Assembly (NCBI GenBank): GCA_951406725.2
Contig: OX597822.1
Span: 94,302,001-94,366,000, forward strand
DNA from: Octopus vulgaris
Lineage: Eukaryota
Direction of reading: 5' to 3'
DNA: 64,000 nt
In this document: one piece after another, positions 2,306 to 62,654 of the stretch
How the letters are laid out: each line of letters begins with the position of its first letter
Position numbering within the stretch: the stretch's first letter is position 1
The notes under the pieces: model-generated
Told to the model about the DNA's origin: nothing
The model's database searches: none
The model's input: the letters and a program-made list of their open reading frames with translations, nothing else
Position numbers and translations under genes: made by a program

Positions 2306-3916
2306 TAGTTTTATTTTTATAGCGTGCTTTCACTTCACTACCGAGCGCAGCTCTGTGTGCCTTGGGTATGTGCTGTGATTTGATGTGATGCTCTGATGGT
2401 TATTGTATGGAAAGTGTTCTGCGTAGGATGTGTGCAGTGCCTAGTAGTGCAATTTTCTGTATGTTATATGTGTTTGTAAGTCCTGGTGTTTCTGTTATGT
2501 ATTTGTCTGAATATTTTTTTATCATGCCTAATGCACCTACTATGATAGGAATTGTTTCTGTTTTTAGATTCCACATTCTGGTTACTTCTATTTCCAGGTC
2601 TTTGTATTTTGAAAGTTTCTCCATTTCTTTTAGAGATACGTTGTCATCTGCTGGTATTGATACATCAATTAGAAAGCATTTTTTTTCTTCATGATCTCTG
2701 ACAACTGTATCTGGTCTGTTGGCCTTAATTTCTCTATCTGTATGTATCGGCATATCCCAAAGTATGGTTGCTTTCTCGTTTTCTGTGACCTTTTCTGGTG
2801 TGTGCCTATACCATCTTTTTTCTGTTGTTATTCCATAATGTTGGCATAGCTTCCAGTGTATGTAGGTTCCAACTCTGTCATGTCTGTGAATATATCCCTT
2901 CTTAGCCAGGACTGGGCAGCCAGAGATAATATGATTTATTGTTTCTTGTCCATCTCCACATATTCTGCAGTTACTTGTTATATTTCTTTTCATTACATGT
3001 TTTTGGTAATTTCTGGTGGAGAGGCTTTGGTCCTGTGCTGCAATTAAAAATCCCTCTGTCTTTGCTTTGAGTCCTGAGCTTCTCAACCATTGCTGGGATT
3101 TTTCTTTGTCTATTTCTTTTGCGTTTAGTTTAGTCCAGTATTTACCATGAAGGGGCTTTTCTTGCCATCGTTTTATCATGGTTCGTTGCTGTTCTGTTTT
3201 TAGCTTGGATTTCATTTGTTTTATAGCTTTTGTTGCTTCTTCTTCTTCTTCTTCTTCTTCTTCTTCTTCTTCTTCTTCTTCTTCTTCTTCTTCTTCTTCT
3301 TCTTCTTCTTCTTCTTCTTCATATTTATTAGGTGGTATGATTTCTTGTTTGTATTTGTCAGCTTCCTTAGATACTGAGAACAGTATTTTGTTTTGCTCGT
3401 GTTTTGCCGCTATTTGTATCAGTTTTCCTTCCTTCTGAAGTAGATATTTTTACAGTCCTATGGTGGTTATTTTATAGTAGTTTTCCAGCTGTATAAGGCC
3501 TCTACCACCTTCTATACGTTGTATATATAGTCTTTCTATGTCAGATTTTGGGTGATGCATCCTAGATCCTGTCATTATTTTTCTTGTTTTCCTATCTATT
3601 TTGGTCAGTTCATTTAGTGTCCAGTTAAGGATATTGTAGCTGTAACTTATAACTGGGACAGCTAAAGTGTTAATACCTATTATCGTGTTTTTAGCATTGA
3701 GCTCTGTTTTTAGTATTGATCTAACTCGTCTATAATATTCTTTTTTTATTTTCTCTTTCATTTGTGTGTGTTGTGTCTTATCTAGTTCATGGATTCCTAA
3801 GTATTTGTAAGTTTGGCTTTGGTCTAATTCTTTTATTTCATTGGTTTTATCTAGTGTGATGTTGCTACTCTTAACTAGTTTTCCTCTTTTCATGGTTACT
3901 TTGGCGCATTTTTCTA
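2301..3916 (-). mobile_element. 5'-truncated R4/Dong-like non-LTR retrotransposon (RT C-terminus, CCHC, restriction-like endonuclease)
   Basis: Motifs YKYLG, RMHHPK, GGRGL, AAQDQ, CRIC-x8-H-x4-C, RHD, RPD..D..K..KY. Flanked on both sides by (TAA)n; one in-frame stop at 3450-3452. Confidence 0.9.
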
Positions 3917-3917
3917 C

Positions 3918-4077
<160 letters not shown>

Positions 4078-4085
4078 ATTATTAT

Positions 4086-5560
4086 TTCCCAATTGATTTG
4101 CATTTCACTTCAGCTACTGACTTTGTCTCAAGCATAGACTTCAGGCACGTATATATTAGATGGATAGAAACTTCCTGAGAATGTGGGTGGTTGATGTCAA
4201 CACAATTTTTCGAGTCTCATAGATAGCTGGTTTCCCAGGGAACTGGTCAAAACTTTTGTCACTATCTTTCTTGACCATTCCCAGGGCACTTACAACAACA
4301 GAGATGGTTTTGGTTTTTAAATTCCACGTTCTAGATATCTCAACCTCAAGGTCCTTATATTCCGATAGTTTCTAAAATTCCTTTGCTGAGATGTGTCTAT
4401 CTGTAGGCTCTGTCATATCAATTAACGTTTTTGTCTTATTGTTTGATGATGATGTCTGGTCTGTTATTTATTTGCTTGTCTGTATGTACCCCCTTGATCC
4501 CATTGGATAGTTGTGGCATTCTCTCCTTCAGTGACTGGCTCTGGATGGTGTTTATACCAGTTCTTAGGCTGTGGGATGTCATAGTGGCGGCATATGCTCC
4601 AGTGCGAATATCGGCCAACTCGATCATACCTGGTTTTATATTCTGTAGGGGTAAGGACAGCAGCCGGCAAGAATGTGGTCAATACACTCAAGTTTGTCAT
4701 TGCAAAGTTTGTACTTTGTGTCTACCTCATTGTGTGTGACATTAGCTTGATAGTTCCAAGTGAAGTAACTCTGATCTTGCACCGCTGTGATAAATCCCTC
4801 TGTTTCGGCTTTCAAACCAGCATTCTGCAACCACAGATGGGTTCTTCTCATATCTACATCAGCTTTCTCAGCTCGTTTGGGGCATTGTCCATGCAATAGT
4901 TTTTCTTGCCACAATCTCGATATTGCCTTCAAGCTTTCCTGTTTGGCTTACTGCCTTAGTGGGTGATGTGTCCTCTTTATCAACATCTTAATCAGGGGGA
5001 TTAAGCTCTCGCCTGTATTTACATGCCTCCTTTGAGGTTGAGCGCACTTCTTACTCTGTTCGTGTTGTCTTACCAGCTGTATCATCCAGTCGGTGTTACT
5101 TTGGATATACGGAGTTCTACCGTGGTCGTTTTATAGTTGATTTCAAGTTGGATTAGGCCTCTACCGCCTTCTTTTCGTGGGAGATAGAGCCTGTGGACGT
5201 TTGATTTTGGGTGGTGCATCCTGTTTAGCGTCAGTAGTTTCCTGGTTTTTATGTCCATACGCTGGAGTTCACTCGGATTTCTATTGATGATATTAAGGCT
5301 ATACTGGACAACTTGTACCGCCAGGGAGTTTATAGCTGCCATTCTATTTTGGGAGTTCAGCTCAGTACTCAGAACAATTCTGATACGTCTATAATACTCT
5401 TTTCTGATCTTCCCTTTCATTGATCCGTGTTAAATCCCTTTCCTTTCGTGTACTCCAAGATACTTATAAAAAGCTTCTTGATCCAGGTCCTTGATAAATG
5501 TATGATGATCAATTTGGGTCGTGGTATTAGCTGTCAGTTTACCACGTTTGAACGAAGCTT
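4086..5560 (-). mobile_element. Older degenerate R4/Dong-like element, tandem to the previous one
   Basis: ORF pieces EYYRRIR..LNSQN, RMHHPK, GGRGL, GLKAETEGFITAVQDQ, YDRVG..HW, RPDI, with multiple frameshifts. Confidence 0.85.
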
Positions 5561-10024: not shown

Positions 10025-10456
10025 CATCATCATCATTGTTCGACCGTGGTCGAGACAATGGAATTTACCATGTTGCGCCAGACTTCACGGTCCATCATAG
10101 CATTACGGAGGTCCTGTTGCTGGATGCCTGTATCCCTGGAGATTAGATCAGGGTAGGAGAGTGTGCGCCCTCTGGTGTTGCGAGTAGATGGCTTCCAGAG
10201 GAGAAGAGTAGAAATTACTTCTTTTTCAGCTCTACAACAATGTCCAGCAAACTGGACTCTCCTACCTTTCACAAGAGATGACACAGGTGGTAATTTCCCA
10301 TATATTTGCATTTTAGTTGGATGGCGCCTCCACGAGAGATTTTGAGCTCTCATAAGGAGGCGAGTGTAGGTTCCATCCAACCGCCTCTCAAGCTTCTTTG
10401 ATAACGTCCAGGTTTCTGAGCCATATAGTAGAATTGGTTCGACTGTGGCTTTGAAT
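10025..10456 (-). mobile_element. RTE-clade LINE 3' fragment
   Basis: Open frame FKATVEPILLYGSETWTL..RRVQFAGHC..AMMDREVWR, stop, then (TGA)n tail; embedded in (ATG)n. Confidence 0.85.
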
Positions 10457-11410
<954 letters not shown>

Positions 11411-59002: not shown

Positions 59003-59819
59003 GTTAAAAACTACTCCTCTCTGTAAAAAAATATTTATTGGATGATTTATTTATTCATTTATTTAATTAATTGCTTTTGTCTTTGGTCATTGAGCGTCAT
59101 TTCCTATTTGCTTCTGTCTAGAAATCAAAGGAATTGATTACCATTCCCTTAAAAATTTGCTTTTGTGACGTGAGCATCAATGTTTTGAAACTGATTTATT
59201 TTCCATTACATTTCAGACTGATTCAGCGCCGAGTTGCTGAAGCAGAAATATCGTTATAACAAATATTCTGCTCAGTAACACAGATTTGCTTGTTAGTTGC
59301 TTGACCTTAACCACTTGAGCATGTCCCTTAGTGACTAACAATATGTGCCTCTCTGATCATGAGCAGGAGTAGCGAGGTTTCATCATAACTATGTATTGAG
59401 AGGGATTCTTTGGGGTTTGAATAAATGTAACAAAAGCAAAATCTGAAGGAAATATTAGGCATTTTTTCATATTTTCTAGGAGTAAGGAAATAAAAAATAG
59501 CAGCTGCTACCCAGGGACAAAAATTGTGTTACACTATGCAGTAACCCTTTCTACTATAGGCACAAGGCCTGAAATCATGGGAGAAGGAGCTAGTCGATTA
59601 CATCGACCCCAGTACTCAACTGGTACTTATTTCATTGGCCCCAAAAGGATGAAAGGCAAAGTCGGCCTCTGCGGGATTTGAACCCAAAGGGTAAAGACGG
59701 ACGAAATGCCCCTAAGCATTTTGTCCGGTGTGCCAACGATTCTGCCAGCACGTTTCTTTAATAATAGTCATAATTCTTTCTGCAATAAGCAGAAGGCCTG
59801 AAATTTTTGTGGGAGGCGA

Positions 59820-59919: not shown

Positions 59920-60090
59920 CTCTCCTTGTTTCTTTCTGTGTTTCTTTTCTGTGTATCTTTCTGTTGAAGAGCGTGGGCTCGAAACGTAAAAGACTTGTTT
60001 TATTTATATTCCTGAGCGCCATACTAATACAATTGTTTGTTTGTATTCCACCTGCCTTCGTCTTTTGTCCATTTTCATAAAGCTTCCCGT

Positions 60091-60092
<2 letters not shown>
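59920..60092 (+). mobile_element. Hammerhead mini-element family H
   Basis: Ends cttcccgtt+(TA)n; a handful of substitutions relative to 61887-62058. Confidence 0.8.
59956..59993 (+). ncRNA. Putative minimal variant type I hammerhead ribozyme
   Basis: UCUUU-CUGUUGA-A-GAGC-gugg-GCUC-GAAAC-GUA-AAAGA. Confidence 0.55.
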
Positions 60093-60636: not shown

Positions 60637-60957
60637 ATATAAGAAGACAAAGAAAGGCTTTAACACATCTTCAATGATCAGCTACAATTGTTTCTGTATA
60701 ATCTCTGCTTTCAACGTCGGTTCACGGACTGGCGTTGAAAGCAGAGAAGCAGAGATGGTATAGAAGCAACTGTCACCGATCATCCTTTGCAGCATTTCTT
60801 ATGGCTTTATGTCCACTGAAGTCGACTTTATCTTTCATCCTTTCGGGTTGATAAAATAAGTACCAGTTGAAGATTGGGTCGTTGTAATCGAGTAGTCCTC
60901 TCCCCTAAGTTTCAGACCATGAGCCTATAGTTGAAAGGATTATCATTATTATTATTA

Positions 60958-61605
60958 ACGAGGCGAGCTTGCGGAATCCTTAGCACGGCGGGCAAAATGC
61001 TTAGCGGCTTTTCGTCCTTCTTTACGTTCTGAGTTCAAATTCCGCCGAGGTCAACTTTACCTTTCATCCTTTCGGGATCGATAGAATAAGTACTAGTTAC
61101 ACACCGGGGTCAATGTAATCGACTATCCCCCTCCCCACAAATCTCAGGCCTTGTGCCTATATTAGAAAAGGATTAAATTTTGCTTTCTCTTACAAAGGCG
61201 GCGATCTACCAGAAACGTTAGCACGCCGGGTGAAATGCTTAGCGGTATTTCGTCTGCCGCTACGTTCTGAGTTCAAATTCCGCCGAGGTTGACTTTGCCT
61301 TTCATTCTTTCGGGGTCGATAAATTAAGTACCAGTTACGCACTGGGATCGATGTAATCGACTTAATCCGTTTGTCTGTCCTTGTTTGTCCCCTCTGTGTG
61401 TAGCCCTTTGTGGGTAGTAAAGAAATAGGTATTTCGTCTGTCGCTACGTTCTGAGTTCAAATTCCGCCGAGGTCGACTTCGCTTTTTATCCTTTCGGGGT
61501 CGATAAAATAAGTACCATTTGTGTACTGGGGGTCGATCTAATCGACTGGCCCCCTCCCCACCAAAAAGATTCCAAGCCTTGTGCCTATAATAGAAAGGAT
61601 TATTG
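60958..61605 (+). mobile_element. Cluster of SINE B-related units, including a tandem junction at 61428/61429
   Basis: Three consecutive bodies with two tail types. Confidence 0.85.
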
Positions 61606-61839
61606 CTTTTAACGAGGCGAGCTGGCAGAATTGTTAGCGCATCGGAACAAAATGGTTAATGGCATTTCTTCCGGCTTTTAACGCTCTCAGCTCAAATCCA
61701 GCCGGGGTCAACTTTACCGTTCGTTGTTTCAGGGTCGATAGAATAAAGTACAAGTCAATTACTGGAGTCGATATAATTAATTTATTTCCTCTCCAAATTG
61801 CTGGCCTTGTTAAAAAATCTGAAACTATATTCTGGCCGG

Positions 61840-62056
61840 AATCAGATCGCCATGTTGATTCGCTAGCTTCTGCACGCATTTTTTTTCTCTCCTTGTTTCT
61901 CTCCGTGTTTCTTTTCTGTGTATCTTTCTGTTGAAGAGCGTAGGCTCGAAACGTAAAAGACTTGTTTTATTTATATTCCTGAGCGCCATACTAATACAAT
62001 TGTTTGTTTGTATTCCACCTGCCTTCGTCTTTTGTTTATTTTCATGAAGCTTCCCG

Positions 62057-62058
<2 letters not shown>
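61840..62058 (+). mobile_element. Hammerhead mini-element family H
   Basis: Inverse of 18927-19128; followed by (TA)n. Confidence 0.8.
61923..61960 (+). ncRNA. Putative minimal variant type I hammerhead ribozyme
   Basis: UCUUU-CUGUUGA-A-GAGC-guag-GCUC-GAAAC-GUA-AAAGA; predicted cut after 61955. Confidence 0.55.
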
Positions 62059-62094
<36 letters not shown>

Positions 62095-62285: not shown

Positions 62286-62411
62286 TAAAAACGGTAAGAT
62301 AACAAAAGAAAGAAAGAGACGTCAATATTATGTAAATAGAGGAAATTTATCTGTAAAATAATATGTGACAATTATTCAATAGCCAAGATAAATGAGATAA
62401 ATGGGATGGCC

Positions 62412-62478
62412 AGATAACCGAAGAGATGGTGGTGTGGATTTCCACCTCGGCATCCGAAACTCGGAGTTTTATCTTGGC
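62412..62478 (+). ncRNA. Putative type I hammerhead ribozyme with long stem II, in a (TA)n-flanked foldback element (62283-62512)
   Basis: AGAUAA-CCGAAGA-[stem II, 12 of 14 pairs]-C-GAAAC-ucgga-GUU-UUAUCU. Confidence 0.55.
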
Positions 62479-62509
62479 TACCGAATAACTGTCACATATT
62501 ATTTTACAG

Positions 62510-62654
<145 letters not shown>

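Follow-up and report, generated by a model that had tools for sequence, protein, structure and literature searches.

Introduction

To our knowledge, the descriptors used to find hammerhead ribozymes treat A6, a base of the CUGA turn, as fixed. The closest described ribozymes to the one considered here are the minimal hammerheads of Penelope-like elements, in which a base between positions 9 and 10.1, a G10.1-C11.1 pair and a palindrome at 15.2-16.2 are conserved (PMC4209133, accessible part). All 56 representatives in Fig. S3 of that paper have A6, and 54 of the 56 have the extra base. Cleavage was none for monomers and low for dimers, and canonical minimal hammerheads are weak. Most minimal hammerheads are single motifs, probably from truncated elements, and functions other than cleavage are left open in the accessible text.

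Non-autonomous derivatives that carry hammerheads, termed retrozymes, are also described (PMC7229834, 10.64898/2026.07.22.740005, accessible parts). In the second of these sources, one of nine retrozyme dimers cleaved and eight did not. Penelope-like elements themselves show a (TA)n insertion bias, head-to-tail arrays and one-ended tails, and have non-autonomous derivatives (PMC8557442, accessible part). The core search in that study used CUGANGA, and Naiad elements are reported at very high copy without a canonical hammerhead. Penelope-like elements make up 6.83% of the O. vulgaris genome (PMC13282606, accessible part), and its supplement does not mention hammerheads.

As for position 6, the initial annotation of this locus considered A6 normally invariant. 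Strictly it is not: A6C is a natural variant, found in phage Bcep176, that is weakly active or slow in Mg2+ and rescued by Mn2+ (PMC3088659, PMC7151607, accessible parts). According to PMC7151607, a natural change at position 6 can remain active. In a mutational scan, hammerheads altered in the CUGA region had low activity unless the alteration was a C3-G8 swap (PMC9901934, accessible part).

Results

Copies of the repeat and their flanks

Five copies of the repeat were found in the window, the whole 64-kb stretch of O. vulgaris DNA analysed here, with nothing else above background when the element was the query in blastn and nhmmer. These are the five copies reported initially, recovered at approximately the coordinates of Table 1 and named by the starts first given for them. 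Each copy opens with a leader rich in U, which is followed by the 38-base motif and then by a 3' part that is rich in AU and stops at (TA)n. In all five copies the 3' end lies directly at (TA)n, with a chance of about 0.003 per copy (52 runs of at least five units in the window). The statement that copies always abut (TA)n is therefore correct for the 3' end. It does not extend to the 5' side, which is not constant: the 18927 copy has (TA)n there, the 61840 copy has the tail of another repeat (a SINE tail), and the 59920 copy runs into a 100-N gap. The run at the 3' end of the 61840 copy is likely its insertion target, and some 10-15 bases 5' of 61848 may also belong to this copy.

The 19145 copy immediately precedes the 18927 copy, and both are on the minus strand. 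The two are arranged head to tail over a short (TA)n, with about 208 bases from core to core, and both motifs are damaged. The 19145 motif has six differences in total, G12A among them. In the 18927 copy, the U-G pair and the ACAU are both changes of the CpG type, and the ACAU disrupts the palindrome.

Table 1. Coordinates of the repeat copies and of the parts of the motif in the window.
Feature	Position	Strand	Evidence or remarks
Subfamily A copy (61840 copy), motif intact	61848..62058	+	Sequence; read depth up across 61835-61864, down at 62045-62059
(TA)n run at 3' end of 61840 copy	62059..62092	+	Sequence
Subfamily A copy (59920 copy), motif intact at 59956-59993	59920..60091	+	96.5% identical to 61840 copy; other 3' flank
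Subfamily A copy (18927 copy), (TA)n on both sides	18927..19125	-	Motif 19025-19062: C7, stem II U-G pair, ACAU for ACGU
Subfamily B copy (19145 copy), motif 19233-19270 damaged	19145..19340	-	G12A, C15.2U, one stem II pair broken; U6 kept; H17 = U
Subfamily A copy (18097 copy), 23-base deletion	18097..18271	-	A9 to start of stem I 3' strand gone; U6, C7 remain
Candidate Penelope-type tail, 15-base 3' segment	62044..62058	+	Absent from one junction contig (run X8); weak
Minimal type I hammerhead motif	61923..61960	+	Sequence; fit to PMC4209133 Fig. S3 consensus (accessible part)
Stem I UCUUU/AAAGA, 5 bp	61923-27/61956-60	+	
Stem II GAGC/GCUC, 4 bp	61936-39/61944-47	+	
Core positions	C3 61928, U6 61931, N7 61932, G8 61933, A9 61934, extra A 61935, G12 61948	+	
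Palindrome ACGU; H17	61951-54; A61955	+	Predicted cut 3' of A61955

The window contains other repeats as well. A SINE cluster lies at 59500-59819 and 60740-61830, between the two intact elements. Three short fold-backs are found near (TA)n or (CA)n, at 18551-18683, 19367-19468 and 62345-62515, with arms of 52, 42 and 48 bases that are 79-92% complementary. They have no mutual match and are either MITE-like or Penelope-type inversions. Two LINE fragments, at 2400-4109(-) and 10033-11081, have zf-RVT matches and relatives at 50-90% identity, and their frames are broken by expanded trinucleotide runs (poly-Glu, poly-Ile). A search with a neighbouring LINE protein pointed to distant marine invertebrates only. 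A Mariner-type transposase fragment at 24689-25027(+) matches PF01359 with an E of 0.00045, below the cut-off.

The hammerhead motif

The layout of the motif at 61923-61960 is as first described, with its two stems, the CUGUUGA core followed by an A, the GAA, the ACGU and the predicted site at A61955. Among the core positions of the hammerhead (C3 U4 G5 A6 N7 G8 A9, G12 A13 A14 and H17), all are as expected except A6, and U is found at position 6 in all five copies of the window. The features of the Penelope minimal hammerheads are also present, namely the extra A61935, the G61936-C61947 pair (10.1-11.1), the palindromic ACGU at 15.2-16.2 and the lack of a loop 3. The consensus of PMC4209133 (U-rich, CUGANGAH G...C GAAAN palindrome NUH, AU-rich; accessible part) is fitted everywhere but at position 6, and it bears out the view that a loopless palindromic stem III is a Penelope-associated trait. 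Together with the (TA)n at 5/5 ends, this fit supports the initial proposal of a short non-coding repeat, associated with (TA)n, that carries a minimal hammerhead of the Penelope type.

The copies do not all carry the full motif: it is complete in only two of five (the 59920 and 61840 copies), two others are damaged (the 18927 and 19145 copies), and the 18097 copy is without 23 of the 38 motif bases. The three-way junction (stem I of 5 bp, stem II of 4 bp and A61951-U61954) is likewise present in 2/5 copies, with 91.7% of cells paired. A descriptor that allows any base at position 6 has two matches in the window, both U6, and none in 60 shuffled windows. A fourth match to a relaxed motif, at 867(+), was discarded, being without stem I and without the stem III palindrome.

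The comparison with Rfam, proposed initially as a check, gave no match to hammerhead families at E up to 10 on 61838-62056. On the element alone there is one Rfam match, with an E of 7.9, judged to be chance. The scan of the whole window has microsatellite-driven matches only, among the 150 of 352 listed.

Family size and spread

The repeat was found in 20 of the 24 listed sequencing runs, which come from four organisms and 11 studies, one of which may be where this DNA was obtained. None of the matching runs listed is on record as RNA, although several may be. Contigs of the four organisms, one run each (4 of the 20 matching runs), were aligned to 61640-62060 at 80% likeness, a level at which families that have diverged too far are invisible. 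The aligned contigs number 11,434, 27,659, 7,442 and 11,692 per run. Relative to a unique flank contig, the summed depth in run X1 is about 6 x 10^4-fold over the element and 2 x 10^5-fold over the motif, a ratio that is no copy number and is to be read as an order of magnitude only. The family to which the repeat belongs is of very high copy number.

In each of the four runs, coverage goes up near 61848 and down near 62050, which speaks for a unit whose 5' end is fixed. Across the runs, the 61940-54 bin is 3.2-5.9-fold deeper than the 61895-909 bin and 2.2-4.8-fold deeper than the 61970-84 bin, and only 1.3-3.4-fold deeper than the highest 3' bin; this peak on the motif could be inflated by the way contigs break.

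Two subfamilies and the base at position 6

Many contigs match only part of the element: 217-332 per run match only from 61924, and 264-400 only up to 61963. The consensus of these loose ends agrees with the flanks of the 19145 copy at 27/30 and 12/14 letters, compared with 10/30 and 5/14 for the 61840 copy. By this resemblance, the 19145 copy belongs, in decayed form, to a second subfamily (B) that has the motif in common with subfamily A. Between the 19145 (B) and 61840 (A) copies, the motif is identical at 32/38 positions and the 3' part at 60/89 (one-sided Fisher p = 0.04, for one pair). There are thus two subfamilies with a common U6 motif and differing flanks.

N7 and H17 are the two core positions that the hammerhead leaves free. 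Among the 40 of 102 variants listed, the only ones in the motif are at N7 (C 15-30%, A 13-23%) and at H17 (U at 19-33% of depth). H17 is A or U, and no G is found among the variants listed. The chance that two random places of 38 are exactly N7 and H17 is 0.0014, or 0.03 if the loop and 9.1 positions also count as free. The motif does not vary less than the rest of the element, with 2 of 38 places variable among those listed against 13 of 173 (p = 1.0). The argument for selection therefore comes from which positions vary, not from how many.

At position 6, there is no A among the 40 of 102 variants listed, the lowest shares of which are around 15%. T-to-A changes at shares of at least 2% occur at 5, 6, 5 and 5 places per run, and four of these places are already listed, which leaves at most one or two others where A6 could sit. 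The window copies supply other candidates for such T-to-A places, at 61785, 61787, 61855 and 61859. A small A6 minority, below about 15%, may exist and is compatible with the contig data.

The initial reading of U6 as a family trait and not as decay is upheld by its presence in 5/5 copies, by variation at N7 and H17 only among the variants listed and by the two subfamilies. Such variation is the pattern expected from selection on a hammerhead core in which U6 is the norm.

Predicted folding and covariation

The 38-nt hammerhead first proposed as the fold can be drawn, but it is not the minimum-energy fold. In the two intact copies this is an alternative pairing, in which U4-G5-U6-U7 pairs with A14-A15.1-C-G16.2, and neither copy is more stable than shuffles (z = -1.20 and -0.39). 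The predicted probability of an open hammerhead with U6 is 0.007 (U7), 0.115 (C7) and 0.162 (A7), compared with 0.233 (U7), 0.038 (C7) and 0.370 (A7) for an A6 control. From these values, the closing effect of U6 is valid for two of the three N7 states. In folding of the whole element, stem II has a probability of 0.75 and stem I of 0.06-0.08.

Two motifs can form a double hammerhead with standard pairs throughout, at -14.7 kcal/mol. The best dimer fold, at -26.8 kcal/mol, is well below this value. All of these energies and probabilities come from folding models that leave out tertiary contacts and ions. As for covariation, which the initial annotation had put forward as a check, it was not seen: 0/11 pairs changed on both sides, in only five close copies.

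Links to Penelope-like elements

The repeat is non-coding. No Penelope protein (RT, GIY-YIG) was found in the 209 ORFs of the window scanned against Pfam, which are 207 of the 273 listed and two long ones. What did match was zf-RVT in the two LINE fragments; the other matches are to a transposase fragment and to a stretch of low complexity, one of each.

At least one head-to-tail junction contig is present, in run X8 (one of four runs), where the 3' part is joined to the next 5' start. The unit in this junction has 195 bases, and its last 15 bases are left out. This could be a Penelope-type tail, or a second insertion into a truncated copy. The link to Penelope is therefore drawn from the motif type, the (TA)n bias and the X8 junction, and not from a partner element.

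A search of the published Naiad, Chlamys and Hydra sequence files (PMC8557442, accessible files) with the motifs of the repeat gave no match, although line breaks in these files could mask matches. A derivation of the repeat from the 3' end of published octopus Naiads was rejected for those families, with no motif match in the accessible part of the PMC8557442 supplement and a Naiad_Obim end that looks unrelated by eye. Two 3' ends in that supplement were also inspected by eye for their own features. The Naiad_Obim end has CTGTTGA, a GACACC/GGTGTC stem and GAAAC, in a register that is not clean for a hammerhead. The 3' end of the record before Naiad-3_Nbra contains CTGACGA, a long insert enclosed by a GTCCC/GGGAC stem, and GAAAC, after which comes a stem formed with upstream sequence. 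The element is described as having no hammerhead, but this could be a complete one whose stem II is long or permuted.

A metagenome scan for the U6 core, covering 1 of 64 parts, gave 118 loci, of which six have a stem II of at least 3 pairs and a palindromic stem III. None of the six has more than one stem I pair, and they were treated as chance. In viral contigs, eight matches were inspected by eye and none has the stems of the motif; four matches to a body motif of the repeat were also found there. Prokaryote genomes gave 0 and 0 matches, and phage records five short ones with an E of 0.2-0.7.

Comparison with known systems

The Penelope minimal hammerheads (PMC4209133, accessible part) resemble the repeat in the U-rich leader, the short stem I, the extra 9/10.1 base, G10.1-C11.1 and the GAAA. 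Further likenesses are the palindromic 15.2-16.2, the lack of loop 3, the NUH site, the AU-rich trailer, a mostly solo occurrence and large families. The repeat differs in having U6, where A is found in 56/56, in a stem II of 4 bp, at the short end, and in having no linked coding element.

The non-LTR retrozymes (PMC7229834, preprint, accessible parts) are also non-coding with a type I hammerhead, and the repeat, at around 195-210 bases, is within their 170-400. Mobilisation by Penelope-like elements has been proposed for them, as for the repeat here. In contrast to retrozymes, the repeat is mostly found as dispersed monomers in (TA)n and not in tandem arrays, has a minimal and not a canonical hammerhead and shows little predicted self-pairing, and its U6 core would fail the retrozyme descriptors.

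The A6C hammerhead of phage Bcep176 (PMC3088659, PMC7151607, accessible parts) shares with the repeat a pyrimidine at position 6 of a natural hammerhead. It is a rare phage case with a full hammerhead, whereas in the repeat U6 is the norm of a very large animal family with a loopless stem III. Finally, the Neptune, Hydra and Naiad clades (PMC8557442, accessible part) are alike in the (TA)n insertion bias, the head-to-tail junction and a short one-ended tail, for which the repeat has a candidate. Unlike them, the repeat encodes no protein, and its motifs have no match in their published sequences, in the accessible files.

In terms of novelty, the inserted A and the palindromic loopless stem III are already described (PMC4209133, accessible part), so that of the undescribed variant proposed initially only U6 remains unusual. 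The accessible parts of PMC6765202, PMC6155905, PMC12192606 and PMC10085705 do not mention a U6 core, and no natural U6 hammerhead was found in the literature compared here. A U6 class could already stand in Lunse et al. 2017, the largest catalogue of these variants, and the family itself in the repeat library of O. vulgaris or the supplements of the preprint. What may be new is that a very large family, present in four organisms, has U6 as its norm.

Discussion

We consider that the repeat is likely a non-autonomous Penelope-like retroelement, with slow cleavage predicted only for paired copies that meet through their ACGU palindromes. To this reading we assign a probability of roughly 0.5. 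We give the slow dimer cleavage, taken by itself, about even odds. From its sequence, the motif appears to work like a Penelope-type minimal hammerhead. One of its defining bases fails strict membership, so it is filed here as a variant and not as a proven ribozyme.

The mechanism would start with read-through transcription of source copies, after which two motifs, in tandem or in trans, would form a double hammerhead. By analogy with Penelope biology, a cut after position 17 would then free a unit-length RNA. The RT and GIY-YIG nuclease of some autonomous Penelope-like element would copy this RNA at a nicked (TA)n site. With U6, cleavage would be slower, as it is with A6C, and a predicted pair between U6 and A15.1 would keep the monomer closed. 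Only N7 and H17 have changed in the core, so that selection would have acted on the source copies after U6 arose, and the inserted copies would then decay. Tandem copies look rare, and most copies are seen solo. The rarity of tandems speaks against activity, as do the slower cleavage published for changes at position 6, the weakness of canonical minimal hammerheads and the eight retrozyme dimers that did not cleave.

A possible, if doubtful, alternative is that the hammerhead is dead or nearly dead: A6 would have changed to U once in a source, and the fold would be kept as a handle for the partner RT or nuclease, or simply carried along by successful masters. Its predicted monomer fold is an alternative pairing, none of the 11 pairs covaries in the five copies, and the solo state of most copies also points this way. 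Naiad elements reach their very high copy number without a canonical hammerhead (PMC8557442, accessible part), and non-cleavage functions are left open by PMC4209133 in its accessible part. A protein-binding role, however, does not predict variation confined to N7 and H17, with A or U and no G at H17 (among the variants listed), nor a core common to two subfamilies whose flanks have diverged.

It is unlikely that the copies derive from autonomous Penelope-like elements as 3' ends (pseudo-LTRs) that have lost their 5' part, with full-length U6 coding elements elsewhere in the genome. Single motifs probably come from truncated elements in PMC4209133 (accessible part), the motif lies about 100 bases from the 3' end, and such an origin is compatible with the ribozyme part of our preferred reading. 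Against it, the accessible published Naiad, Chlamys and Hydra files gave no match to the motifs of the repeat, although line breaks could mask matches there. In 4/4 runs there is also a steep drop in depth at one 5' boundary, near 61848, and the 18927 copy and the X8 junction contig begin at the same place.

Lastly, it is very improbable that the hammerhead likeness is chance, or that the GGCTCGAAAC stretch is what remains of the Pol III B box in a tRNA-derived SINE. In favour of this, Rfam hammerhead families gave no match at E up to 10, the fold is no more stable than shuffles and GGCTCGAAAC differs by one base from what we take to be the B-box consensus. Against it, the sequence agrees with a hammerhead at twelve core positions, in two stems, at the 9.1 base and in the palindrome, the descriptor has 0 matches in 60 shuffles, no tRNA was found (ARAGORN 0 genes, no tRNA match in Rfam on the element), and no T-arm stem surrounds GGCTCGAAAC. 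A tRNA-derived SINE as such was also rejected, as the repeat does not have a tRNA-like head with A and B boxes (ARAGORN 0; boxes judged by eye).

Returning to the non-autonomous Penelope-like retroelement, a bolder and quite tentative extension of this reading, which we would not expect to hold in full, is that an active and so far unreported U6 hammerhead is the standard ribozyme of a mobile family that ranks among the most abundant in this animal lineage, on the order of 10^4-10^5 copies. U6 would both weaken the core and lock the monomer through A15.1, which would make it a dimer-gated switch. Searches with CUGANGA miss U6 cores, so that counts of animal hammerheads would be too low, and some "hammerhead-less" Penelope-like families may have off-consensus cores.

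A U6 family with varying N7 and H17 offers a direct test of the amount of catalysis that a Penelope-type element needs. If the U6 motif cuts, relaxed descriptors should reveal many more genomic ribozymes. If it does not, this would be good evidence for a non-catalytic job of the fold in retrotransposition.
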